From positions 1 through 32,000 of the forward strand of contig PRDJ01000061.1 in NCBI GenBank assembly GCA_003345555.1: a stretch of 32,000 nucleotides of DNA, in the 5' to 3' direction. This document shows, piece by piece, positions 1 through 24,181 of the stretch. The notes beneath the pieces were generated by a model. That model had not been told where the DNA came from, searched no databases, and saw only the letters and a program-made list of their open reading frames with translations. Made by a program: the position numbers and the translations under genes. Numbering within the stretch: position 1 is the first letter of the stretch; the number at the start of each line of letters is the position of its first letter. Origin of the DNA: Candidatus Thorarchaeota archaeon. Lineage in GTDB: Archaea > Asgardarchaeota > Thorarchaeia > Thorarchaeales > Thorarchaeaceae.

Positions 1-164
1 CAGTTATTACCCTTTTGATGATATAAACCGATTGAAATGCACAATAAGCGTTGATAATGCCCGGATTGCGTATCACAGTCAATGTGTACCATCTTCGTAA
101 TCGTGGAGAGTTATCACCGACCTGTAGGGTTTGGGACATGCTTAACACCTAAGGAAGCCAATAC

Positions 165-275
165 ATGTTCGAGGTGAGCTTGTTGTTCTGGTTCCGAGAC
201 GAGGATGACTTTGACGACGACTGGGACGACGAAGACGACTGGAGCGACGACGAGGATTTTGACGAGGACTGGTAG
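165..275 (+). CDS. Hyper-acidic microprotein, 36 aa (30-31 aa if started at TTG 183/180); not in the supplied ORF track
   Basis: Manual translation gives MFEVSLLFWFRDEDDFDDDWDDEDDWSDDEDFDEDW*. ATG at 165, TAG at 273-275, SD-like GAGGTGA at 171-177 just ahead of in-frame TTG codons. Third codon positions vary (GAC/GAT, GAG/GAA) while D/E is kept. A strong hairpin follows. Confidence 0.6.
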   Translation: MFEVSLLFWFRDEDDFDDDWDDEDDWSDDEDFDEDW

Positions 276-317
276 AATCGCCCCAGAAGGACAACGGTAA
301 CTACCTAGAACAAAGGC

Positions 318-355
318 GGAGGTGAGCTCTAGGGATTGGCCCTGAGCTCACTTCC
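318..355. terminator. Strong stem-loop between convergent genes (micro-ORF / MTAP); possible bidirectional terminator or 3'-end stabiliser
   Basis: GGAGGTGAGCTC (318-329) pairs with GAGCTCACTTCC (344-355) with one G-U pair; inner AGGG/CCCT stem closes a 5-nt loop. Confidence 0.6.
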
Positions 356-364
356 ATCTGTCCC

Positions 365-1225
365 TCAGAACAGACCGTGAAGCATGGCGGTCTGACAGGT
401 GCATGTTGCTTTCTTGGGAATCTTAGGAATCAGCTCATAGGTCAGCTTCCGAACTCGATCTATGTTGTTGGACATCGTTTTCAGAACCATTTCGTGAGTT
501 ACATGCTCGGTTCCATAGACGTCCTTGTCAGTGGGCATAGCTATGTTCAAATAGCACATCCCAGCTTCTCGTGCTAGCACGGATTCGGGATACGCCGTCA
601 TTCCAACGACGTCCCAGCCCTGATTGTGGAAGAATATCGACTCCGCATAAGTTGAGAATCTGGGACCGTTTATGCAGACGTATGTTCCCTTCTCGTGGAC
701 CTTGTAGGTGAGCTGCTTTGCGGTCTCCACCGTAAGCTTTCTCAGCTCGGGACAGTAAGGGCTCCCAAATGGAACATGGGCTATGGGTCCTCCGTCAAAG
801 AAAGTATCCTTTCTCTGGCCGAACGTCCTGTCGAAAATCTGGTCAACAATCACAAACTCTCCCAAGTCTATCCTCTCCGGCTGCAGACTCCCACATGCAC
901 AAGGACTGATTATCCTCTTGACACCAAGTGACTTCATTCCCCACACGTTCGCACGGTAGTTGATCATGTGAGGTGGAATGCGATGATTTCTGCAATGCCG
1001 CGCCAGAAACGCGAGAGTGCGTCCCTTCACTGTTCCCACGATGAAGTTGTCCGATGGTGCTCCATAGGGAGTGAAGACCTTAATCTCGACGGGATTCTCG
1101 ATTACAGTTGGGTCATAGTTGCCACTGCCCCCGAAGAGTCCCAGCTCAATTGGCAGCAGCTTCTCAATCTGGTCCTTCTGCTTTGGATCCACCAACACAT
1201 ACGCAGGTTTAGCTTCGAATGCCAT
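365..1225 (-). CDS. mtnP: S-methyl-5'-thioadenosine phosphorylase (PNP/MTAP family)
   Basis: GGSG start motif, TPYGAPS, RH..HRIPPH.INYRAN, ACGSL, GPRFSTYAES, VVGMT..PE..LARE, C-terminal CxC. Confidence 0.92.
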   Translation of the reverse strand: MAFEAKPAYVLVDPKQKDQIEKLLPIELGLFGGSGNYDPTVIENPVEIKVFTPYGAPSDNFIVGTVKGRTLAFLARHCRNHRIPPHMINYRANVWGMKSLGVKRIISPCACGSLQPERIDLGEFVIVDQIFDRTFGQRKDTFFDGGPIAHVPFGSPYCPELRKLTVETAKQLTYKVHEKGTYVCINGPRFSTYAESIFFHNQGWDVVGMTAYPESVLAREAGMCYLNIAMPTDKDVYGTEHVTHEMVLKTMSNNIDRVRKLTYELIPKIPKKATCTCQTAMLHGLF

Positions 1226-1388: not shown

Positions 1389-3323
1389 TTACGAGAACCC
1401 AAGAAGCACGAGCCCATAGTGCACGATTCCACCAAGCACGATAGCGAGCGACACTTCAACGAAGCTAATCATTGCGGCTCGCTTCAAGCCGAACTCCTTA
1501 GCTAGGACCGCGATCGTCGCAATGCACGGAATGTAGATCATGACCACGAATGCAAACACAAACATCTGCACGGGTGTCATGACCAAAGCGAAGTTCGTCG
1601 TCCCCATTAGCGACGCGAGAAGAATCATCGTCATTTCCTTTCGCAGGATACCGAATATGAGAACGATTCCTGTCACTGCTGGTAAGCCTAACCACAGGAC
1701 GGTCACTGGACTCATGGCTAATTGGACAATCGAGAGCAGCCCCACTACATTGCTAAGTTGAATCAAGAAGTTGCCGACGATAATCAGAGGAAAGGCAGTG
1801 TAAACGAATTCCTTCAGATTGACCCAAGCCTTCTTCATTGTCTTGTCCAGACTGGGCCTCCGATAACGGGGCATCTCCATAACAAGACCAGTTGGCTCTC
1901 CGGGAAGCACCTTGAATGCTAGGCGGCTGAGAGCGAATATGATGATGAAGTCAATGATGTACAGAACCGCAGCCCATCCGAATCCTACGTAGACGGCGAC
2001 CATCCCCATGATGACGATGCTTCTCGCGGTACAAGGAACGAGGCTCGTTGCGAAAGCACATATCAAACGCTCACGTCCCGTTTCCATGATTCGACATCCA
2101 AGGCAAGCGGGGACATTGCAGCCAAAGCCAAGCATCAGGGGGATGAAACCCTTGCCGTGAAAACCAATCTTGTGCATCGCTGAATCCATTAGAAATGCTA
2201 TCCTTGCAAGGTAGCCTGTGTCTTCAAGAATCGACAGTGCGATAATGAAAGGTACTATGTACGGAATCGCAACGGTCGTACCTGCAACCACCCCTTCGAT
2301 TAGCCCGGCCCAGATGAACCCTGCAAAATCACCGGGAAATGAAGAATAGTAGGCAGACTTGATCTGCAGGAATCCTTGGTCTAAGAGTGAAGAAATATGT
2401 TCACCCAGAAAGAAGACGCTGTAGAACATGAAGACGATGACGAGTACCATCATCACATAGCCAATCGCGGAGTGCAGGGCGAGGCGATCCACGCGTTCTC
2501 CGAACGTCTGCTTACGGACATCGTGAGCGGTAACGTCGGAGGAGACTCTGTGAGCAATCGTATAGAGCTCAGAGGCTAGGGCACTCCCTGCATCTTCGCC
2601 CGTGACATTCTCGATCTCACTTCTGAGCCTCTGCACAACAGCTTCAATCTCCGGTTTCTCTTTGTAAACCAAAGCCTCGATTCCATTATCACCCTCAAGA
2701 AGTCTGAGTGCGGCCCACCTCTTCGGAAAGGAAAGATTCACTGCTTCGAGCGTGTCGGCCAGCTGACGGACTCTGCTCTCGAGATCTGAGCTATACTTGA
2801 TGGGACTGGACCGTTGATATCGACCAAGCGAAACTCGTATGACCTCATCCATAAGACTCTGAAGACCGAAATTCCTAGTACCTACAGTTGGAACGACCGG
2901 CACTCCCAAAATTCGTGCGAGGCGTTCCGAGTCTATATTGAGACCTTTGCGCTCAGCAACATCCACTTGGTTCAGCGCGACGACCATGTGCGGCTGGAGT
3001 TCGAGGAGTTCTAGTGTCAGGAATAGGTTTCTCTCTAAAGCAGCAGCGTCAACAACATTGATTAGAACATCAGGTGCGGACGATGTTATGTACTCGCGGC
3101 TTATGGACTCGTCAGTTGAATAGGCTGTAAGACCATAAGTGCCAGGCAGGTCCACAATGTCGAGAACGCGACCGCAAAAGGCCAACGTGCCCTCTGCCTT
3201 TTCGACAGTCTTGCCGGGCCAATTACTGACATGTTGATGGAGACCAGTCAACTGGTTGAATATCGCGCTCTTACCGACATTGGCATTTCCAATCAATGCG
3301 ATTGTCAGATGCTGGCTGGTCAT
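1389..3323 (-). CDS. feoB: Ferrous iron transport protein B
   Basis: G1 GNANVGKS, G2 NWPGKTVE, G3 DLPGTY, G4-like NQVD, gate motifs GFGCNVPA and PCTAR, PCIAT, many TM helices. ATG 3323 overlaps the upstream stop (ATGA), so it is the likely start rather than 3341. Confidence 0.96.
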   Translation of the reverse strand: MTSQHLTIALIGNANVGKSAIFNQLTGLHQHVSNWPGKTVEKAEGTLAFCGRVLDIVDLPGTYGLTAYSTDESISREYITSSAPDVLINVVDAAALERNLFLTLELLELQPHMVVALNQVDVAERKGLNIDSERLARILGVPVVPTVGTRNFGLQSLMDEVIRVSLGRYQRSSPIKYSSDLESRVRQLADTLEAVNLSFPKRWAALRLLEGDNGIEALVYKEKPEIEAVVQRLRSEIENVTGEDAGSALASELYTIAHRVSSDVTAHDVRKQTFGERVDRLALHSAIGYVMMVLVIVFMFYSVFFLGEHISSLLDQGFLQIKSAYYSSFPGDFAGFIWAGLIEGVVAGTTVAIPYIVPFIIALSILEDTGYLARIAFLMDSAMHKIGFHGKGFIPLMLGFGCNVPACLGCRIMETGRERLICAFATSLVPCTARSIVIMGMVAVYVGFGWAAVLYIIDFIIIFALSRLAFKVLPGEPTGLVMEMPRYRRPSLDKTMKKAWVNLKEFVYTAFPLIIVGNFLIQLSNVVGLLSIVQLAMSPVTVLWLGLPAVTGIVLIFGILRKEMTMILLASLMGTTNFALVMTPVQMFVFAFVVMIYIPCIATIAVLAKEFGLKRAAMISFVEVSLAIVLGGIVHYGLVLLGFS

Positions 3324-4090
3324 TGTGCATGCCCTCTCCACCTTCTGCCCGAATGCGGACCTGGAGGAGCACCATGCCTTGGCGCCTTACCCTCGCTAAT
3401 CTCGACGAATACGAAGGACGCAAGCCCTCTTCCAAGAGCAAGTCTCGTGTCCCTAACCGCAATCTCAACAGGTCCTTTGAAAGGCGCGACGTTTACTACC
3501 CTTAATCGTGTGCCTTGCGTGAGTCCCATGTCAAGAAGACGCTTGTACGCTCCATTTCCTGCCCTCACAAATGCAACGACAGCTTCCTCACCAGTCCTCA
3601 GGTTCGACAGCTGAGTCACGAGCCGTGGGCGATCGTTTGCCTTTTTCCTTGCGGCTACACAGTCATCGCAGTCCTTGACTTCGAGGGAACACGGTGGAAT
3701 GGGGTTGTGATCGTCAGGACATGTTGCGGGTTGGTCGAGAGCTCGACACATGGCGTCCGCAACATCATCAGAAAGGCTGTGCTCAAGTCGGCAAGCTTCA
3801 GCATGTACCTTTTCACGCTTGAGGCCCAAGGAGTCATGCAAGTAGCGTTCCAAGAGCCTATGCTTTCTTACGATCCTCTCAGCGTAGGCCATGCCCTTGC
3901 CCGTCAGCGTTGCACCCTTGTATGGCTCGTACTCGACGAGACCGTCTTCTGCTAATCGCTTGAGCATCTCAGTAACGCTAGGAGGAGAGACAGCCAGCTT
4001 CTCAGCGAGCTCTGTGGTTTTTGCTGGCTCGCCCGTCTCATTGAAGGCATGAATCGCCTCAAGATACTCTTGGACGCTGTCGGTGCTCAT
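3320..4090 (-). CDS. DtxR/MntR/IdeR-family metal-dependent repressor with C-terminal FeoA (SH3-like) domain
   Basis: QEYLEAI wHTH, SPPSVTEMLKRL, RKHRLLERYL, EACRLEH, CP..HNPIP; FeoA signature RLLDMGL..GT.LRVV..APFKGPVEIAVR..RLALGR. Confidence 0.93.
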   Translation of the reverse strand: MSTDSVQEYLEAIHAFNETGEPAKTTELAEKLAVSPPSVTEMLKRLAEDGLVEYEPYKGATLTGKGMAYAERIVRKHRLLERYLHDSLGLKREKVHAEACRLEHSLSDDVADAMCRALDQPATCPDDHNPIPPCSLEVKDCDDCVAARKKANDRPRLVTQLSNLRTGEEAVVAFVRAGNGAYKRLLDMGLTQGTRLRVVNVAPFKGPVEIAVRDTRLALGRGLASFVFVEISEGKAPRHGAPPGPHSGRRWRGHAQ

Positions 4091-4146: not shown

Positions 4147-4378
4147 TTTCTCCTACGGACATGAATTCAGATGGATTTCGGACATGGGTTCATCGGGAAA
4201 AATGACATCGCGAGACAATCTCTCTTCGTCGGCTTGTGATTCCGTGATCTCAATCAGGAGAATGCCCTCCGATATTGCTCCTGATACCAACTACTCAGCA
4301 TTGGGTATTCTTGGGTCGCATGAGTTAAGAGCAGGAGTGTGGATGATTTGCATTCGCGTAGGGGATGGAGACTCGTAC

Positions 4379-5035
4379 ATGAATGGAGAGCTCGGCTTCG
4401 AGACAAGCCTCGCCGAATCCAGAACCGTGAGACTGGCCTTAGCCCTTGGCATCATTGGAGCCCTCCTCGGTCTTTGCATCGTCTTTCTTCAGATACTTCA
4501 AGTCGAAGTTGTTGCAGAGAGAGGATATGCGACGCTCCAATATATGGCCAGAGTGTCAAACGTCATTGGAATGGCCTCTGGGGCATTCATGACTGCCGCG
4601 TTTGTTGGAGTGATGAGGAAGCATCTGAGTCCCCTCGGGTTCCTGTTCGTGGCTGTGTATGCTATCCAATGGATTGTACACTATGCCTTCCAGTACCTGT
4701 TGTCGCTCTTGTTCTCATTGGGACTGGTCAACGTGTACCCTTTCCTGTCGGCAATGACATCCACTTTCCTAATCTCGGTCTTGAGCTATGCACTCTGGAC
4801 AATAAGAGCAGTTGCAGCAAACAAGACTTCGTTACTAGCCATCGTAGTACTACGGCCCCTGATACCATGGGGCTTCCTGATTTACTACGTGTACTGGGTG
4901 CCCGGTCTAGCGGAATTGGCGGGTTGGATTGGGTACGCCTTCTACTATATCCCATCCATAGTCATGTCGTTTCTTCTTGGGCTTGCATATCTCGTATTCT
5001 TCCTGAAAGAGTACCTTCAGTGGCAGGTTATCTAA
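4379..5035 (+). CDS. Hypothetical multi-pass membrane protein (about 6 TM)
   Basis: Long hydrophobic segments. ATG 4379 follows purine-rich GGGGATGGAG and is preferred over 4184, whose N-terminal extension looks non-coding. Confidence 0.7.
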   Translation: MNGELGFETSLAESRTVRLALALGIIGALLGLCIVFLQILQVEVVAERGYATLQYMARVSNVIGMASGAFMTAAFVGVMRKHLSPLGFLFVAVYAIQWIVHYAFQYLLSLLFSLGLVNVYPFLSAMTSTFLISVLSYALWTIRAVAANKTSLLAIVVLRPLIPWGFLIYYVYWVPGLAELAGWIGYAFYYIPSIVMSFLLGLAYLVFFLKEYLQWQVI

Positions 5036-5054: not shown

Positions 5055-5726
5055 TCACTTCATCATGCGCCATGTCTTGTCAAGTGGATACTGAATCAGC
5101 CCAAGGAAACCCATGTGCGCCTTGACCTTGGACAACTGCTCATCCGAAATAACTACGTTGTTGTACTCTCTCAGGTACTTCTTGAGCTCGAGAGTGCTCA
5201 TCTCCTTTATCTTCTCACCTTGGAATATCTTAGTAATGAGGGCCGTCAAGTCCTCGTAGAAATTCCACGGCCATATCTCCCAAGCCCACGCAACTTCAAC
5301 GCCGAAGTAGTCAGGTACGAACTTAGAACCAGCAATGTGCATCAAAGTAGCTGACTTCACTTCGGACGCGCGCCCTTGTTCCTTCACATGGTTCACAGCC
5401 AGAGTGAGACTCTCTCCGGTGTCAGTGATGTCATCGACAACCAAGACCTTCTTGCCCTTCACATCGCCGCTCAGCGGGCATGAAATCCTAGCCTTTCCGT
5501 CCTTTGTGGCGGTGACACCCCAGTGATCCACCTTGATGCTGTAGAGCTCTTTGACGCCGAGCAGGTCACACTCTATCCGGGCATGAACCCATCCACCTCG
5601 TGCAATACCGACGATTGCTTGCGGCCTCCACCCCGAATCTCTGACCTTCATCGCAGTCTGGTATGCGTATTGATAGATATCATCAAAATCAAGAATGTAG
5701 CAGAGAGGTCCCTTGAGTTCTACCAT
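5055..5726 (-). CDS. Type I phosphoribosyltransferase (archaeal hypoxanthine/guanine/xanthine PRTase-like)
   Basis: IVGIARGGW, PRPP-binding loop VLVVDDITDTGESL, PDY....W..WPW tail. Start at ATG 5726 preferred over 5867. Confidence 0.88.
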   Translation of the reverse strand: MVELKGPLCYILDFDDIYQYAYQTAMKVRDSGWRPQAIVGIARGGWVHARIECDLLGVKELYSIKVDHWGVTATKDGKARISCPLSGDVKGKKVLVVDDITDTGESLTLAVNHVKEQGRASEVKSATLMHIAGSKFVPDYFGVEVAWAWEIWPWNFYEDLTALITKIFQGEKIKEMSTLELKKYLREYNNVVISDEQLSKVKAHMGFLGLIQYPLDKTWRMMK

Positions 5727-5910
5727 CGCGGCAACCCGTCTTTCAGCCGGAGCTGCGTTACTTAAAGGTTTGTTCTTAGCACCGCTCTCGAGCGGATCTC
5801 GATTCCGACAGGGAACCGATTTGAGTGTTGCAGCAACAGACTTTGTCTTGGCCTGCGCACTAATCAACCGACCTTACGACAACTCGATGAATCAATAGTG
5901 CATTGAATAC

Positions 5911-6444: not shown

Positions 6445-7293
6445 TTACACCTTCAGTTCCCATAGAATTGAATCAACCCTGCCCGGCGTGTATCGAACAC
6501 GCACGGTGACTCCCTCGCCGCTCACAACTTTCGTCGGAGTCTCAATTGGAAGGAAGATATCCCTCCATCCGTCTTCCATGTGGAGCGCGATATCGTCAAG
6601 GAGCTTAGCCTTGAAGAATCCCACGAGACCATGCAGAGTCCCTTGCTCGGATATGTCAAAGCTTAGTTCACGGTCTACTGTCTGCGGCGATCTATGACTG
6701 CCAAAATCAAACGATACGAGATGTCTTGCAGCCGCCAAGTCTTTGAAATCGTCGAGACCGACAGTCTGCGGTACGCGCGGAAAGTGGAGCTCGGGAAGCT
6801 CGAACCTGCCCCAAGCTGCGGGACTTTCAACGGGAACGATCCATACTTCAGCACTCTCCGGAATCAATCTGCCTCCTTTCTTGAGAAGATGCTTCAGAGC
6901 ATGAGAACACGCTGGCACCTGCTGCTCAATGAGCATCATCGATGAAAGCATCTCACATACGACGAGGTCGGCTCGCTCTGTCGGGCGGAAGTCTGAAAAG
7001 TGTCCAACGAAGAACTCAACCCTGTCTTCGAGGCCATTCATTGATGCGGCTTTCCTAGCGTAGTCGATACATTCTGGGCTGATATCGACAGCGGTTACCT
7101 TTCTGGCTCCGGCCCTCGCTGCTAGGAACGAAAGAACCCCCGATCCCGTCCCGAGGTCAATGACGTAGCTGTTAGGCGTCACCAGCTGTTTCAGCGCCTC
7201 ATCGAACTTGTGAATTCGCGACCTATGATCTAGGAGACTTGCAGCATGGAGTACCGGAAAAGGAGTTGCATACTTGCTCTTTGGCATCGCCAT
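6445..7293 (-). CDS. Class I SAM-dependent methyltransferase with PRMT-like architecture (archaeal COG4076-like)
   Basis: Motif I VIDLGTGSGVLS, VTAVD, double-Glu-like loop VVCEMLSSMMLIEQ, GGRLIP, C-terminal beta-rich part with GTLHGLVGFF. Confidence 0.85.
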   Translation of the reverse strand: MAMPKSKYATPFPVLHAASLLDHRSRIHKFDEALKQLVTPNSYVIDLGTGSGVLSFLAARAGARKVTAVDISPECIDYARKAASMNGLEDRVEFFVGHFSDFRPTERADLVVCEMLSSMMLIEQQVPACSHALKHLLKKGGRLIPESAEVWIVPVESPAAWGRFELPELHFPRVPQTVGLDDFKDLAAARHLVSFDFGSHRSPQTVDRELSFDISEQGTLHGLVGFFKAKLLDDIALHMEDGWRDIFLPIETPTKVVSGEGVTVRVRYTPGRVDSILWELKV

Positions 7294-9771: not shown

Positions 9772-9790
9772 AGGGGGTATCTTACCCCCT
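9772..9790. terminator. Hairpin at convergent junction, overlapping the RecJ stop codon
   Basis: AGGGGGTA-TCT-TACCCCCT, perfect 8-bp stem. Confidence 0.5.
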
Positions 9791-11308
9791 GCCCTCACTT
9801 TTTCTTTCGTCGGTTGACTGCAGGGATTTTGCGATCAGGTCTGATACTATTTCTAGGAATTCTTTCAGATAGTCAGAGTGTACAAACGCACCAGCCGCCA
9901 TGGGATGACCCCCTCCTTCTGCAACCATCGTTCCATATCTATCATTCAAGGATTTGCTGGCAGACACGAAGACTTCTCTCAGGTTGACGCCCCTCTTCAC
10001 AAGACTGCGGGCGGCGCGGCCAGATATCTTCAGCATAGGACCTTCGCCCGACACCTTGGTACTTACTCCAATCACCGGCTTGTCTGTAGGAACGATTCTC
10101 GACCCCTGAGCCATGCCTATCACTACACCTACAATGGTGTCAGGTGTTTCTGGATCCATGACGAGATACATCCCCGGTCTTTCCTCAACACCACCTGTCT
10201 CAAGACGCCGCAGCGCGCTAGCTAAGTTGGCACGGTGTTGCTGGAGTAGAGTCTGTCCTTCCCGCCAAGCCTCTAAGTCTCCGAAGCATATTCTGACACC
10301 CACCTCAGGTTTCTTGTTCCTTCCGCACGCGTTCAGCAGAGTCGAGAACTCTTTCGCAGTCCTGAGCTCCGTCCTCGGTGGGCGCCTGACAAGCGTCATC
10401 ACGTCACCGATGATACCAGTGGCGGCTTTGGGGTTCTCATAACTTTGAAGAATCGAATCAATTAGCTTCTGAATTACCCGTCTCTTCTCGTCGGGCTTCA
10501 AATCGGCCCATGTTCTCCAGATGTCCTCACTGTCCTTCAATGGGATGCCCAACTCATCAAAGAACGCAAAACACCCGTCCCTGTTGCCGGTGATTCCGGG
10601 AAGGTAGGGGTCTGTCGTAAACTCCAACAGGAACGGCAGCGGCCTTGTGCTTATCCCGAAGAATGTGAGGTCCTTGTGCACCTTGACGTAGCCATGTTGT
10701 TCTGCCAGAGCTATTATCTCCTTGTTCAAACCTGAAAACCCGCGACCATAGTAATCTTGAAGGTCACCCGTTGCGCCCACGACTGCCAGTTCGCTGAGAT
10801 CGACGTTCTCAGTTGATATCGCGTATGCAACCAAGAATGCCAAGCCTGCCCCTGAGAGTTCGGAACTCCCGATCATACCATGCTGACAAGGGTTCACTTC
10901 GATGATGCCTTGCTCGTTCTTCTCGCGCCAAGAATCCGGGTCTTCATCAGATGGAATATGATGGTCTAGAACGATGATGGCCTCGATGCCCGGTTGGCCT
11001 TGGATGTTCTCTCGCACAAGACTCATCTGACCAGACCCAAAGTCGGTGAATATGACCAAGTCTGGTTGTAACTCTCCCACGAGGGTCTTAACTTCTAGGA
11101 CGGTCTCGGAGCTCAGCTGGTGGATGTTTCTCCAAGATGTTTTCTTGCCGAGTCGCTCGAGCGTTGTGACCACTATGGCCAGAGAAGTTATCCCATCTGC
11201 ATCTATGTGTGAGATTGCAAGGATCTTTGTGGAATTCCTAACAGCGCTGGCGGCTCTGTTCACTTGGTCTCGCAGTGAATCCGGCTGTACGAAGCTGAGT
11301 CTCTCCAT
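9782..11308 (-). CDS. recJ: DHH-family exonuclease, archaeal RecJ/GAN (Cdc45 homologue)
   Basis: SHIDADG, TDFGS, LDHH, GDLQD, NACGR, DHHA1 motif GGGHPMAAG; catalytic motifs appear intact. Confidence 0.9.
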   Translation of the reverse strand: MERLSFVQPDSLRDQVNRAASAVRNSTKILAISHIDADGITSLAIVVTTLERLGKKTSWRNIHQLSSETVLEVKTLVGELQPDLVIFTDFGSGQMSLVRENIQGQPGIEAIIVLDHHIPSDEDPDSWREKNEQGIIEVNPCQHGMIGSSELSGAGLAFLVAYAISTENVDLSELAVVGATGDLQDYYGRGFSGLNKEIIALAEQHGYVKVHKDLTFFGISTRPLPFLLEFTTDPYLPGITGNRDGCFAFFDELGIPLKDSEDIWRTWADLKPDEKRRVIQKLIDSILQSYENPKAATGIIGDVMTLVRRPPRTELRTAKEFSTLLNACGRNKKPEVGVRICFGDLEAWREGQTLLQQHRANLASALRRLETGGVEERPGMYLVMDPETPDTIVGVVIGMAQGSRIVPTDKPVIGVSTKVSGEGPMLKISGRAARSLVKRGVNLREVFVSASKSLNDRYGTMVAEGGGHPMAAGAFVHSDYLKEFLEIVSDLIAKSLQSTDERKSEGRG

Positions 11309-20738: not shown

Positions 20739-21509
20739 ATGGAACACGGACCAATCTTCTGGCTGCTCGGCATCGAAGCATACGACTACGATGTCGGGGT
20801 CTTGCGTGGGACCGATTTGAAAGGGAAAGCCTTGATCCTCTCCCGACAGCTCTGGTCGATAATCCGAGGAGAGACGGTCATTTCCGTTCTAATTGGACCG
20901 GGAGTCTTCAAGGGAGTAGCGACTATCGGAAACCGAAGGGTCGAAATACTGGAACCGTTGCTGGCATTGATGTTTGATCCGACCCATATGCGGGCTGACG
21001 AGCCTGTACCACTTGTTGATATTATCTCTCCCGAAGTGATTGATCCGTTGGCAAGCCGCAAGACGGAAGAAATCATGACCACAATCCGTCAGCTCGTCAT
21101 TGAACGAGGTAATGTATTGGCGGCTGAACCACTCATGAAGATGAGAACGGACGCTAATGTCCCAACAACAGCATACGCAATGGATTTGCTGAAGAAGATT
21201 CATGTAGCTCACGTGTCTGGCACGCAGAGGGCCAGATTCATTCTTGCAGGCACCAACAGCCCGATGTACCGGCCTCTTGTAGATTGGTACAAGAAACGGA
21301 AATACGACGAACCCGCGCGCATCAAGGTTATGGCCATGCCTTTCAACAAATTCAGCAGTTCGGTGGACATAGAGACTATGTCTGACTGGACAATCGTAGA
21401 GAAGGCAGGCATCGATGGGAATTCCGGAATCGAGGCCATTCATGAAGAATATGAGCAGACTCTTGGTGGCTTGCGGGAAAACGAGAGCCTGTTCATATAC
21501 GAAGTTTGA
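20739..21509 (+). CDS. Hypothetical protein (N-terminus weakly EVE/PUA-like)
   Basis: 256-aa ORF whose stop overlaps the helicase TTG start (TTGA). The domain guess is pattern-based only. Confidence 0.75.
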   Translation: MEHGPIFWLLGIEAYDYDVGVLRGTDLKGKALILSRQLWSIIRGETVISVLIGPGVFKGVATIGNRRVEILEPLLALMFDPTHMRADEPVPLVDIISPEVIDPLASRKTEEIMTTIRQLVIERGNVLAAEPLMKMRTDANVPTTAYAMDLLKKIHVAHVSGTQRARFILAGTNSPMYRPLVDWYKKRKYDEPARIKVMAMPFNKFSSSVDIETMSDWTIVEKAGIDGNSGIEAIHEEYEQTLGGLRENESLFIYEV

Positions 21510-24181
21510 AAACTGAAAAGGCTCCATGCCTAGGAACCTTGTTCTGTGAGGCCACTGCAGTGGAGGTCGTAGACGCAGAGATAAAGAAGCGACTTTCTGA
21601 GCCATACGTACTCCTGCTCAGACGCGCAAGGCAGGAGATGGCTACACTAGTAGGGGTCTTCTCCGAGGTCTTGTCAGATAGACAGCGAGCATCTCTCACG
21701 GGAATGGTCGAATACGGGTACAGAGCCGCAGGCCTGCTTGAAATCAAGCGTGCATATTTCATCAGATACAACAAGCCCGTGTACTTTCAAGAGAGGGAGT
21801 TCCATGAGATACTCAGGAAAGCAAACAATATTCTCATCCCTGGCAAAGAAGTCCCGTCGTTCATAGAAGACCTACGGACCTTTCTTGCTCGCATTCAGAC
21901 AGCCCGACCAAGGATTGTCCCCGTCTGTCCAACCTGCTTGCGTGATGATCGCCTCACTGTTCTCTCTCGGAGAAACGCAGTGAAGGTGTCTGAAAGCCAA
22001 GTCTCATGTATCAGCTGCGCGCAAAGCGACCTCAAGACTGAACTCAAGAATATGGGCATCACATTGTCCCGGGCCATGGTCGTCCAGCTTGAGCGGCAAG
22101 TCTCGCGAGTCAAGTCCGTGCCGAGGCTTCTGGAGATGCTGACACCGGGTTTCGACCCGACGCGGGAAAGAGAGTTGACACTGTTTGACACTATCTCTGT
22201 CGGCGAAAGCGGCCCGGTGCAACATATATCCGCTCTACCAATTCCAGAGGAGCTTGCTCGGCTGCTTCAAGCCGAAGGCATCCAGAATCTGCTTCCTGTC
22301 CAGCAATTGGCCGTCGAATCTGGCTTGCTACGCAATGCTAGTCTCTTGGTAGTATCATCCACTTCATCAGGAAAGACGCTAATCGCGGAACTTGCAGGCA
22401 TACCGAAAGCAGTGGCGGGTGAGAGGCTGATCTATATTGCTCCTCTCGTTGCTCTCACTAACGAGAAGTATGAGCAGTTCAGAAAACGATACCGGGCGCT
22501 CGGATTGCGCACGGGGATAAGAGTGGGCATGTCTCGCCTCGATGTGGGAAACGAAGGCAGGCCAATCGTAGACACGGACATATCCAAGGCAGACATCATA
22601 TGTGCCACATACGAAGCATTGGATACGCTATTTCGCTCAGGGGAGTCTGCGCAGCTAGACAAGGTCGGTACGATAGTAGTAGACGAGATTCAGAACCTAG
22701 CAGACCCCGAGAGAGGACCTGAGCTTGACGGATTGGTGGCAAGGCTGAGATACCATGCTCCCCGCGCTCAAATCCTCTGTTTATCTGCCACTGTCGGAAC
22801 TCCAGAGAATCTGGCGAAGGAACTCAAGCTGACCTTAGTTAATCACACTGGCAGACCTGTACCATTGGAACGTCATCTGGTCTTCGCTCATAGTGAAGAA
22901 GACAAACGAGAAGTAATCCGCAGACTTGTCCTTCAGGAATTTCACAATACGAGTAGTGCGGGGTTCAAGGGGCAGTCCATCGTGTTCACCTATTCACGAC
23001 GCCGGGCACATGCCTTGAGCGATTGGCTGCGTGAGAACGGGACTTCATCCACCGTCTATCATGGAGGTCTTACTTACAGCCGCAGGCGTCACGTTGAATC
23101 AGCATACTCTAAACAGCGCTATGCATGCGTTGTCACCACCGCAGCTCTAGGAGCCGGAGTGGACTTGCCAGCATCTCAAGTCATATTCGAGTCTCTCGCG
23201 ATGGGCTCAGACTGGTTGACAAACGCTGAGTTCGAACAGATGCTCGGTCGGGCAGGTCGCCTCGGCAAACACGACAATGGGCTCGTCTACCTCCTAGTTC
23301 AGCCTGAGCGGAAATATCACAGTGGGCAAGAGAGAACAGAAGATGAAGTGGCGGTCGATCTTCTCAACGGTGTAGTGGAGAATGTTGAACCGACATCGGA
23401 TATCGAAGCCTGCGCCGAACAGATACTCGCCACAATATGCTCGACAGGGCTGATTGACTTCAAGGACGTTGCGCGTGCCTACAACGACATGCTCTCGACC
23501 ACTGTTCCCGCTTCGGAGGCGCTGAAGTATCTAGTCCGGCACCACATGATAAGAGTTCAAGACAACGGGGTCTACCCCACAGAACTGGGCAAAGCCACAT
23601 CCGTCTCTTTTCTGACTCCGAGCGAAGGGTTGGATGTTCTGAAACACATTGAAACCATGGATGTCTTGGATACAGCCATCAGGCTCGAGCCATTTGATAA
23701 TGTGTACTTGAGCGCGAAGCTGCAGGCCGAGGTAGATGCTGCATTTAAGACTCATATGCCAACTCGTCTGTTCTCAGGAGTCATGTCCGACCTCGCCGAC
23801 TTCGGCCACCAGCGGGAAAGTCACGCCAAATTCCCGGGATGGGTCTACGAAGTGTTCAGTCGGTGGATAGCAGAGATATTCAACTGCGGCTGCCGCGATT
23901 TTCCGGAATGTGACCACGGCATGATAAGGCTTGGCAGGTGGATTGTAGAACGAAGGAAGGAGGGCTTAAATCCATCTGGCATTGCCAAGCGCTTGCACGA
24001 CGATTTTGAACTCTGGGCATATCCAGGAGACTTGTTCACGTGGCTGGACTCTCTGATTCATAACCTCAAAGCAGTTCAGCGAATCGCGGCCATTGCAGGC
24101 AAGACGGACTTAGGCGTACAGATTGACAGTCAGATAGCAAGGATCGAACGTCCACTCGAACCAGTCGAAGTCAAAGAGTGA
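21506..24181 (+). CDS. Archaea-specific SF2 (Ski2-like) helicase, COG1202/DUF5814 type
   Basis: Q motif LLPVQ, Walker A STSSGKT, DEIQ, LSAT, YHGGL, TTAALGAGVDLPA, QMLGRAGR; N-terminal CPTC/CISC and C-terminal CGC...CDHG motifs. Confidence 0.92.
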   Translation: MKTEKAPCLGTLFCEATAVEVVDAEIKKRLSEPYVLLLRRARQEMATLVGVFSEVLSDRQRASLTGMVEYGYRAAGLLEIKRAYFIRYNKPVYFQEREFHEILRKANNILIPGKEVPSFIEDLRTFLARIQTARPRIVPVCPTCLRDDRLTVLSRRNAVKVSESQVSCISCAQSDLKTELKNMGITLSRAMVVQLERQVSRVKSVPRLLEMLTPGFDPTRERELTLFDTISVGESGPVQHISALPIPEELARLLQAEGIQNLLPVQQLAVESGLLRNASLLVVSSTSSGKTLIAELAGIPKAVAGERLIYIAPLVALTNEKYEQFRKRYRALGLRTGIRVGMSRLDVGNEGRPIVDTDISKADIICATYEALDTLFRSGESAQLDKVGTIVVDEIQNLADPERGPELDGLVARLRYHAPRAQILCLSATVGTPENLAKELKLTLVNHTGRPVPLERHLVFAHSEEDKREVIRRLVLQEFHNTSSAGFKGQSIVFTYSRRRAHALSDWLRENGTSSTVYHGGLTYSRRRHVESAYSKQRYACVVTTAALGAGVDLPASQVIFESLAMGSDWLTNAEFEQMLGRAGRLGKHDNGLVYLLVQPERKYHSGQERTEDEVAVDLLNGVVENVEPTSDIEACAEQILATICSTGLIDFKDVARAYNDMLSTTVPASEALKYLVRHHMIRVQDNGVYPTELGKATSVSFLTPSEGLDVLKHIETMDVLDTAIRLEPFDNVYLSAKLQAEVDAAFKTHMPTRLFSGVMSDLADFGHQRESHAKFPGWVYEVFSRWIAEIFNCGCRDFPECDHGMIRLGRWIVERRKEGLNPSGIAKRLHDDFELWAYPGDLFTWLDSLIHNLKAVQRIAAIAGKTDLGVQIDSQIARIERPLEPVEVKE

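Follow-up and report, generated by a model that had tools for sequence, protein, structure and literature searches.

A conserved hyper-acidic, tryptophan-punctuated micro-gene of Thorarchaeota, its basic neighbour c3, and related micro-genes in other archaea

The window analyzed here is a stretch of 32,000 nucleotides (nt) from a Candidatus Thorarchaeota archaeon (GenBank assembly GCA_003345555.1; 82 contigs, 2.28 Mb, 93% complete), comprising positions 1 to 32,000 of contig PRDJ01000061.1 (C61) and thus starting at the 5' end of that contig. Close to this end lies a very small open reading frame (ORF) of 36 codons (positions 165 to 275, + strand), convergent with an mtnP-like gene for a purine/methylthioadenosine (MTA) phosphorylase. 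The last 25 residues of the ORF consist of 19 aspartates or glutamates, five tryptophans or phenylalanines and one serine, and its aromatic residues (F16, W20, W26, F32 and W36) are spaced 4-6-6-4, with Trp as the C-terminal residue. A first-pass annotation of the sequence had read the ORF as the gene of an unannotated, hyper-acidic, aromatic-punctuated microprotein with a Shine-Dalgarno (SD)-like GAGGTGA and a strong hairpin downstream, and on re-check the composition, the spacing, the terminal Trp, both signals and the neighbouring genes were all present. Comparison with related genomes now indicates that a genuine protein-coding micro-gene lies here, in the same frame and beginning at TTG 183, that this frame is under purifying selection, and that the micro-gene has an SD sequence and a promoter-like box of its own, in agreement with that first reading (Table 1).

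At the mtnP loci of 30 relatives, almost all genera of the family proved to have acidic micro-ORFs punctuated by Trp, most of which end in ...DDW, and orthologues were found in at least 14 of its genera (Thorarchaeota). Two types can be distinguished among these micro-ORFs: type A, which is short (alignment A1), and type B, which is longer and has a W-G-D-E-W core (alignment A2). Among type-A orthologues, codon differences number 217, 275 and 1346 at the first, second and third positions, respectively (73% at the third), and of the codon changes 561 are synonymous and 621 exchange one D/E or one aromatic residue for another, as against 249 others; this pattern fits only the frame of the micro-gene. 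A profile hidden Markov model (HMM) of 14 orthologues recovered only 4 known positives, owing to composition filtering, and DNA patterns were used for detection in its place. A pattern describing the C-terminal half of the peptide (D/E-D/E-W-D/E-D/E...D/E-D/E-W-stop) matched 61 of 400 genomes of the phylum (54/85 in family f1, 6/19 in f12 and 1/5 in f32, families being numbered as in our own listing), and the reversed pattern, used as a control, matched 0 of the 400. Within its own 2.28-Mb genome the ORF is the only one of its kind, and an independent contig from a public wetland metagenome, covering window positions 29 to 1150, shows no indel in the repeat.

The contrary reading, that the frame is a decaying GAC-rich repeat or a chance ORF and not a gene, draws on the low complexity of the sequence, on the failure of gene finders to call the family, on a collection of 15 billion proteins in which exact look-up found none of the 10 members tested, and on the RNA contigs of two wetland metatranscriptome runs, which cover mtnP only (positions 364 to 1021) and none of positions 165 to 275, although contigs cannot show absence. 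Tandem Repeats Finder detected only a weak 18-nt unit in 1.9 copies, and the sequence is therefore not a microsatellite. The frame-specific variation at third positions, the failure of the reversed pattern to match anywhere, the retention of the ORF over many genera and phyla with conserved neighbours, and the conservation of SD, start and promoter box while the intervening sequence diverges are all at odds with decay. We rejected the repeat reading on these comparative data (codon positions, conserved signals and breadth) and regard the absence of a gene as extremely improbable. The first-pass annotation had itself proposed that a lack of conservation would mark the ORF as a decayed GAC repeat; the frame, the start region and the general aromatic pattern are conserved.

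The product of the micro-gene is likely to be a peptide of 30 residues from TTG 183 and not one of 36 residues from ATG 165. The GAGGTGA sequence lies 3' of ATG 165 and 5 nt before TTG 183, and therefore cannot serve the upstream codon. The SD proposed at first is thus present, and conservation in 14 orthologues and in three species assigns it to TTG 183 and not to the start of the 36-residue ORF. In 14 of 14 type-A orthologues the layout of SD, spacer of 5 to 8 nt and start codon is kept, the start being ATG, GTG or TTG, and the acidic tract comes after one to three bulky hydrophobic residues; a (C/T)TTA(A/G) box is found 41 to 47 nt 5' of the SD-linked start, again in all 14. When three species of the genus were aligned (alignment A5), the promoter-like box, the SD and the TTG proved to be conserved, the SD being invariant and the box the best conserved upstream block; the roughly 20 nt between box and SD diverge, and ATG 165 occurs only in this genome. 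Since ATG 165 stands about 24 nt after the promoter-like box, the transcript would be expected to start at about this position. The 30-residue product contains 19 D/E, four W and four F and has a net charge of -18.5; it is probably disordered, and its predicted local distance difference test score (pLDDT) was under 50 in the complex prediction described below. Downstream, the core stem of the hairpin (318 to 355) folds at -38.5 kcal/mol (z -3.7, equalled by 0 of 200 shuffles), and an 8- to 12-bp GC-rich hairpin, different in sequence each time and often followed by a U run, was seen in single folds of 13 of 13 orthologous intergenic regions. RNAalifold gave no consensus for the 13 downstream regions, the hairpins not being alignable, and Rfam gave no family match for the hairpin region.

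Table 1. Positions of the micro-gene, its signals and neighbouring genes, and of features at other loci
Feature	Sequence	Positions	Strand	Remarks
Promoter-like box CTTAACACCTAA	window	141..152	+	archaeal TATA-like element, 42 nt 5' of TTG start; putative promoter function
In-frame extension from ATG 165	window	165..182	+	probably 5' leader, at best an alternative start
Shine-Dalgarno sequence GAGGTGA	window	171..177	+	GGTGA-type, shared by orthologues
Microprotein coding sequence, TTG to TAG (putative)	window	183..275	+	30 residues (window:183-272:+), starts MFWFRDEDD, ends DEDW
GC-rich hairpin between convergent micro-gene and mtnP	window	314..359	.	probably a shared two-way terminator
mtnP-like purine/MTA phosphorylase (PNP_UDP_1)	window	365..1225	-	convergent; context only; Pfam
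FeoB	window	1389..3341	-	
DtxR-FeoA fusion	window	3320..4090	-	22-nt overlap with FeoB ORF
283-residue ORF	window	4184-5035		without assignment; between mtnP and phosphoribosyltransferase
Phosphoribosyltransferase	window	5055-5867	-	follows mtnP directly in other Thorarchaeota
PRMT5-like methyltransferase	window	6445-7293	-	with PRMT5 oligomerisation domain
RecJ/GAN-like DHH-CID protein	window	9782-11308	-	
DEAD-box helicase	window	21506-24181	+	C-terminal DUF5814 domain
HerA-like ATPase	window			
c3	L002 (contig C41)	390-1280	-	divergent, about 0.3 kb upstream of micro-gene
Zinc-ribbon protein with poly-Glu tail	L203 (G000:C39, window genome)	245-592	-	115 residues
Oligo-lysine ORF	L051	1591-1671		
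Oligo-lysine ORF	L062	1595-1669		
Oligo-lysine ORF	L195	2742-2816		
Oligo-lysine ORF	L200	2805-2879		
Oligo-lysine ORF	L034	1231-1311		
Oligo-lysine ORF	L192	2728-2799		
Oligo-lysine ORF	L122			
Oligo-lysine ORF	L132			

Beyond mtnP, the window carries an iron module (FeoB and DtxR-FeoA) that is peculiar to this genome. The orthologous loci of other genera lack it and have the phosphoribosyltransferase gene directly after mtnP; the module therefore seems to have been inserted into a string of MTA/purine salvage genes. This bears on the suggestion, made as an alternative in the first-pass annotation, that the peptide buffers or chelates cations, be they Fe, Ca, Mg or polyamines. Such a role would suit the extreme density of carboxylates plus aromatics and the proximity of FeoB/DtxR and MTA phosphorylase in the window, but the tie to the iron operon dissolves with the finding that the module is genome specific, the linkage to mtnP is lost within the genus (see below), and a single 30-residue peptide would make a poor bulk buffer. 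Moreover, the conserved companions described below, c3, an oligo-lysine peptide and ABCE1, are not metal or polyamine genes, and we consider chelation very improbable. Farther along, the PRMT5-like, RecJ/GAN-like and DUF5814 helicase genes are a typical archaeal or eukaryote-like information-processing set, and the DHH-CID RecJ/GAN-like protein, the HerA-like ATPase and the DUF5814 helicase mark the host as an archaeon.

The micro-gene has relatives well outside the Thorarchaeota. A three-Trp pattern was scanned against the genomes of about 185,000 species, and the taxa among the matches listed include Thorarchaeota, Bathyarchaeia, Desulfurococcales, Thermoproteales, Thermofilum, Methanomethylicia, Nitrososphaeria, Brockarchaeota and Nezhaarchaeales; Thermococcus forms are among those listed as well, and the bacterial matches are mostly C-terminal tails of longer proteins. 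The archaeal micro-ORFs encode 23 to 60 residues, consisting of a Met, hydrophobic residues, repeats of (E/D)3-6 W and a Trp before the stop. With 19 of its 30 residues D/E and eight aromatic, the window peptide shows the traits of this group (20 to 60 residues, more than 60% D/E, Trp or Phe every 4 to 7 residues, usually a Trp end), and it belongs to a previously unannotated (D/E)n-W microprotein family of Asgard and TACK (Thaumarchaeota, Aigarchaeota, Crenarchaeota and Korarchaeota) archaea. Database searches returned no match in Pfam for the window protein (E<=0.01), no Pfam family for seven longer type-B relatives (E<=10), no PDB chain for a type-B profile (E<=10), and no NCBIfam model among the members tested (the window protein was run against Pfam only), the Pfam and PDB negatives being limited by the HMMER composition filter, which penalises acidic low-complexity sequences of this kind. 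Likewise, a 41-residue type-B relative and a 60-residue Thermococcus form gave no scored protein-homology matches, the best feature match in the ESM Atlas (score 0.83) was to unnamed clusters and below the useful range, and a search of 8 million full texts for peptide motifs (EEEWEEEW, DDDWDDD and others) found no paper.

This distribution speaks to the kinship with DSS1/Sem1 or with the acidic motif of the WASP family that had been proposed at first, whereby the peptide, as their archaeal homologue or forerunner, would bind RPA, the proteasome or Arp2/3. The likeness to these proteins is compositional only (acidic tracts with W/F), and the host is an Asgard archaeon. There is, however, no match to Pfam, including DSS1_SEM1, even at E<=10, and none to a PDB chain; the stand-alone 30-mer is half the length of DSS1 and has no WH2 or C elements; the neighbouring genes (c3, ABCE1 and TFS) do not point to the proteasome lid, BRCA2 or Arp2/3; and the family is also present in TACK archaea, so that a eukaryote-like, Asgard-specific origin is not supported either. 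Descent of this kind is accordingly judged highly unlikely, although a way of working as an acidic, Trp-anchored hub or mimic, which was part of the same proposal, is plausible by analogy.

Two other candidate identities were tried and rejected. A carrier protein of the LysW type would have a zinc ribbon, a Glu end and an ATP-grasp neighbour; the window peptide lacks the ribbon, ends in W and has no such neighbour. A precursor of a ribosomally synthesized and posttranslationally modified peptide was set aside, no modifying enzymes being encoded nearby. Two further observations concern other acidic, Trp-containing proteins. In Thermococcus and in metagenome-assembled genomes of other Thermococci (L072, L116, L117, L156, L170 and L171), ORFs of 46 to 70 residues combine a basic MQPPKKKK head with a long (E/D)n-W tail whose last residue is W; as a rule they are situated 5' of MoeA and seryl-tRNA synthetase genes and divergent from a gene for a Cdc48-like ATPase, and at the Thermococcus loci examined the micro-ORF is not beside ABCE1 or c3. 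The kinship of these forms with the TACK/Asgard family is uncertain. The window genome itself also encodes a protein with an N-terminal four-Cys zinc ribbon and a poly-Glu tail of about 60 residues ending in EEDWL (Table 1).

To describe the gene neighbourhoods, all ORFs within 2.5 kb of 134 micro-ORF loci were clustered, and recurrent clusters were named with Pfam. In TACK archaea the micro-gene usually lies 50 to 110 nt 5' of the gene for ABCE1 (Fer4_RLI, Fer4 and two ABC domains), on the same strand, sometimes with a TFS/RPB9-like gene in between, and genes for Cgi121, a THUMP protein and a phosphoribosyltransferase are found upstream. ABCE1 was present within 2.5 kb of 32 of 59 non-Asgard micro-ORFs, directly downstream on the same strand in 25, from at least five classes, and within 2.5 kb of none of the 64 Asgard micro-ORFs. 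Contig C42 carries the ABCE1 gene of the window genome, and upstream of that gene there is no acidic micro-ORF. Adjacency to ABCE1 is a trait of the TACK branch only. At four Thermoproteota and Brockarchaeota loci (L065, L096, L158 and L177) a stand-alone, single-cassette ABC ATPase of about 243 residues is encoded directly 5' of the Glu/Trp micro-gene, which is then followed by ABCE1.

The recurrence of ABCE1 raises the possibility that the peptide partners with or regulates the ribosome-recycling ATPase ABCE1 or translational GTPases, acting as a free mimic of the aP1 stalk tail or of an acidic Trp motif like that of eIF3j/Hcr1. Precedents exist for both: the C-terminal tail of aP1, the stalk protein of archaea, binds nucleotide-binding domain 1 (NBD1) of archaeal ABCE1, through its C-terminal hydrophobic residues, as well as aEF1A and aEF2 (PMC6125642), and eIF3j, an ABCE1-associated factor (PMC2824034, PMC7780240), has an N-terminal acidic motif (NTA) whose conserved Trp occupies a hydrophobic pocket on the RNA recognition motif (RRM) of eIF3b (PMC2824034). 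The Asgard counts and the position of ABCE1 in the window genome tell against such a role for the window peptide, as does its lack of an LxxLF(G) stalk motif, and conserved strings of archaeal "information" genes often contain unrelated genes. Taken together, these data leave an ABCE1 partner as a possible but rather doubtful explanation.

The same neighbourhoods could also be read in cis. Runs of consecutive D/E near the N-terminus cause stochastic abortion of translation in bacteria and eukaryotes (PMC9718836, PMC12673854), and an ORF of this composition, through such intrinsic ribosome destabilisation, might act as a translated sensor that reports Mg2+, polyamine or recycling capacity and tunes a downstream gene. 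The placement of the TACK ORF 50 to 110 nt before ABCE1 and of the window ORF beside a gene for salvage of MTA, a polyamine by-product, would be in line with this, but downstream of the window ORF come a terminator hairpin and a convergent gene, leaving nothing there to regulate, gene order with respect to ABCE1, TFS and the oligo-lysine ORF is not constant and can even be inverted, and neither the periodicity of Trp nor the frequent terminal Trp would be needed for such an effect. A cis-acting sensor therefore seems improbable.

A third reading takes its cue from the C-terminus and from the two [4Fe-4S] clusters of ABCE1. In eukaryotes, clients and adaptors of the cytosolic iron-sulfur protein assembly (CIA) machinery are recognised by a C-terminal [LIM]-[DES]-[WF], conservation being limited to the last two positions, and Rli1/ABCE1 needs the Trp-terminated adaptor Lto1 (PMC10245660, PMC4523923). 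The window peptide ends in E-D-W and its TACK relatives adjoin ABCE1, so that it might be an adaptor for Fe-S delivery. Its antepenultimate residue, however, is acidic and not L/I/M, several c3-linked orthologues end in D/E and have no terminal aromatic residue at all, the peptide lacks a deca-GX3 part like that of Yae1/Lto1, and the signal is reported in the cited work to be absent from prokaryotic Fe-S proteins; we find this adaptor role scarcely credible.

Another companion recurs beside the acidic micro-gene in other genera. This is an oligo-lysine micro-ORF of 17 to 24 residues, which begins with MAKKK or a close variant, ends in a run of lysines, and lies 40 to 140 nt from the acidic micro-gene on the same strand, on either side of it. 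It occurs at two Bathyarchaeia loci and, among the Asgard families, in f12, f31, f32 and three genera belonging to f1 (Table 1), and was not found in the window, on contig C41 or elsewhere in the 93%-complete genome. The acidic and oligo-lysine genes look like a polyanion-polycation gene pair.

In the Asgard archaea the recurrent neighbours of the micro-gene are mtnP, convergent and present in most Thorarchaeota, and a gene for a basic protein of about 280 residues, which we call c3. In the window genome c3 lies on contig C41, the 3' end of which (L002 1404-1572) overlaps window positions 1 to 171 over about 170 nt at about 95% identity; because the contig ends overlap, C41 and C61 are adjacent. 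The assembly break falls just where the acidic repeat begins and is probably due to strain variation in the metagenome. The C41 protein shares 81% identity with the protein encoded divergently beside the micro-gene in another genome (G003) and 23% identity (E 3e-9) with a Thermoproteota protein encoded directly 5' of a micro-gene and ABCE1, at a locus where c3, the micro-gene and ABCE1 stand in a row on one strand. The intergenic block between c3 and the micro-gene (window 20-100; L004 about 2600-2700), with the sequence …GATGATATAAACCGA.TGAAA…, is well conserved in the window genome, C41 and G003, and may be a promoter for c3 or an operator.

A profile search of the 400 genomes detected c3 in 59/85 genomes of f1 and 17/19 of f12, and also in f13, f31, f32, f8, f15 and f10, that is, in eight families of the phylum, to which three loci titled Bathyarchaeia or Thermoproteota can be added. 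In the approximately 290 genomes of the remaining families c3 was not found, and the DNA pattern likewise gave 0 matches there, whereas all three pattern-positive families are c3 positive. Thirty-four genomes, belonging to two families, have a pattern match no more than about 0.5 kb away from c3. In a genome of the same genus (G002), mtnP has no micro-gene downstream, and the micro-gene, recognisable by the same MFWFRDEDD start and DEDW end, is divergent from c3 on another contig. As a blind test, the flanks of c3 were scanned in lineages that the DNA pattern had missed, and an acidic micro-ORF with Trp, Phe, Tyr or Leu was found to adjoin c3 in f31, f32, f12, f13 and two more genera of f1; in f8 and f15 none was seen beside c3, and the f10 contig is truncated. 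Because the micro-gene of G002 left mtnP and stayed with c3, and because the blind test of the flanks was positive, c3 and the acidic micro-gene can be regarded as a module, shared by the Asgard lineages and by some Bathyarchaeia. mtnP is often adjacent but no part of this module, and a functional link to it is not supported; the synteny beside mtnP that the first-pass annotation had suggested checking holds for most Thorarchaeota and fails in G002. Thorarchaeota have the two genes in divergent orientation, f12 and Bathyarchaeia have them co-directional, and c3 is single copy in nearly all of the 88 carrier genomes (seven have two matches) and follows the family tree.

Proteins of the c3 family have isoelectric points (pI) of 9.8 to 11.3 and net charges of +18 to +41 (pI 10.7 and +24 for the copy of the window genome). 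c3 has no Pfam or NCBIfam match, and all of its sequence homologues are named "hypothetical protein". A confident AlphaFold2 model (pLDDT 88.7; predicted template modelling score 0.81) predicts two alpha/beta domains that resemble ferredoxin or Cas2, together with a long three-helix bundle. The nearest predicted shapes are hypothetical proteins of Thorarchaeota and Bathyarchaeota (TM 0.7-0.8), followed by ChrB_N/PaaX_M-like proteins (TM about 0.5). Foldseek against the PDB gave no match at E<=0.001, the weak ones being PaaX (8a39) and Rv0674 (3kfw), and with VIA-align only the C-terminal three-helix bundle matched spectrin-like repeats, a common arrangement. Residues R116, R125, P134, D251 and Y260 are nearly invariant (alignment A3).

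We suggest, tentatively and with a probability of roughly 0.4, that the peptide is a disordered, polyanionic, Trp-anchored ligand that binds a basic partner, probably c3, in a setting linked to translation. The charges of the two products match (+18 to +41 for the c3 family, -18.5 for the peptide), and the peptide would bind a basic, nucleic-acid-binding surface of c3, with long-range charge attraction doing most of the work and Trp side chains docking in hydrophobic pockets, in a manner comparable to the seating of the eIF3j acidic Trp motif on the eIF3b RRM. By doing so it might shield or chaperone c3, or compete with RNA for it. The process concerned could be translation or ribosome recycling, a setting suggested because the TACK members of the family adjoin ABCE1 and TFS. 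A broader and decidedly unlikely extension would see the acidic Trp microprotein, c3 and, in other genera, the oligo-lysine peptide as an ancient archaeal polyanion-polycation module working on ribosomes or in ABCE1-dependent recycling, for instance in the control of subunit association or the shielding of RNA-binding factors, and as a prokaryotic forerunner of acidic Trp adaptors like eIF3j or DSS1.

Several points weigh against binding to c3 as the function of the peptide. Binding is a proposal: complex prediction for c3 (A3) and the microprotein (A1) gave an ipSAE of 0.00 in two runs, made without control runs, and speaks neither for nor against binding. The micro-gene is likewise presumed to be transcribed and translated. 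Even within the genus there are indels and the aromatic residues change position, which implies no fixed binding register, and the terminal Trp is common without being universal. Genera g4 and g5 have type-B micro-genes without detectable c3, and in most TACK lineages the micro-gene has stayed next to ABCE1 with no c3 present; therefore, c3 is not the sole partner for the whole family. The Asp-rich Asgard and Glu-rich TACK forms are linked by their neighbours (c3 and phosphoribosyltransferase) and not by alignable sequence, and low-complexity peptides can arise convergently. Finally, the divergent orientation would also fit a c3 that regulates the micro-gene and is not its ligand.

If the micro-gene is translated, a widespread archaeal gene family has been missed entirely by standard annotation. 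Its companions are ABCE1, an essential ribosome-splitting ATPase shared with eukaryotes, and c3, found here only in Asgard and Bathyarchaeia genomes, and they turn the micro-gene into a concrete starting point in the search for an accessory of archaeal translation or RNA handling. What the Asgard branch adds is a defined candidate partner, c3, which, unlike anything offered by the ABCE1-linked TACK copies, can be expressed and tested directly. More generally, low-complexity frames of 30 codons should not be dismissed as repeats without comparative checks. A description of the family was not found in Pfam, NCBIfam, the PDB, the 15-billion-protein collection or the 8 million full texts; the general type, a small, acidic, aromatic-anchored disordered ligand, is already known.

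The closest counterpart of the window peptide is the Glu/Trp microprotein encoded beside ABCE1 in TACK archaea. The two share a length of 20 to 60 residues, a D/E content above 60%, Trp every 4 to 7 residues and often at the end, an SD and promoter of their own, absence from the calls of gene finders, a c3 neighbour in some Bathyarchaeia and a phosphoribosyltransferase nearby; the window form differs in being Asp rich, in using Phe as well as Trp, and in being tied to c3 and not adjoining ABCE1. A small acidic protein beside a protein with Cas2-like domains also recalls type II toxin-antitoxin pairs (a Cas2/VapD-like toxin and a small acidic antitoxin). These are co-directional, patchy, mobile and multicopy; c3 is single copy in nearly all carriers and follows the family tree, and its pair with the micro-gene is divergent in some lineages (Thorarchaeota) and co-directional in others (f12, Bathyarchaeia).

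DSS1/Sem1 (PF05160) is a small, disordered, acidic eukaryotic adaptor and single-stranded DNA mimic with W/F anchors, of about 70 to 90 residues, with two acidic-aromatic blocks and a C-terminal helix. The window product has 30 residues (36 at most) in a single acidic tract, with no non-acidic C-terminal segment or helix, its family is present in TACK archaea lacking the known DSS1 partners, and no genes for partners of the proteasome lid, BRCA2 or RPA type were found in the conserved neighbourhood of the micro-gene. The acidic (A) motif of WASP/WAVE is the end of a WH2-C-A module, whereas the window gene stands alone with its own SD, start and stop. The tail of aP1, like that of eukaryotic P1/P2, resembles the peptide in its acidic stretch with a hydrophobic or aromatic end, yet it is tethered to the ribosome and forms an L-x-x-L-F-G helix, whereas the microprotein is free, uses Trp and has neither that motif nor a stalk dimerisation domain. 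The CIA targeting signal of Lto1 shares with it an acidic residue followed by a C-terminal Trp and, in eukaryotes, a tie to ABCE1, the window E-D-W fitting the last two positions and not the third; the signal is reported to be eukaryote specific.

Prothymosin-alpha and histone H1 form disordered polyanion-polycation complexes. The archaeal peptides are much shorter, and the window genome yielded no oligo-lysine gene; the likeness lies in an acidic peptide gene placed beside an oligo-lysine gene, in other genera, and beside a gene for a +24 protein, and this pairing with basic partners suggests, by analogy, charge-driven complexes without folding. eIF3j/Hcr1 is the comparison that bears most directly on c3. 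eIF3j is a eukaryotic protein of about 260 to 270 residues whose acidic motif relies on one key Trp, in contrast to a stand-alone 30-mer with four W and four F, without sequence homology to it, for which binding to c3 is a proposal; what they may have in common is a disordered acidic Trp segment acting on a ferredoxin-like domain, the RRM in the one case and, in the other, the two ferredoxin-like domains predicted for c3.

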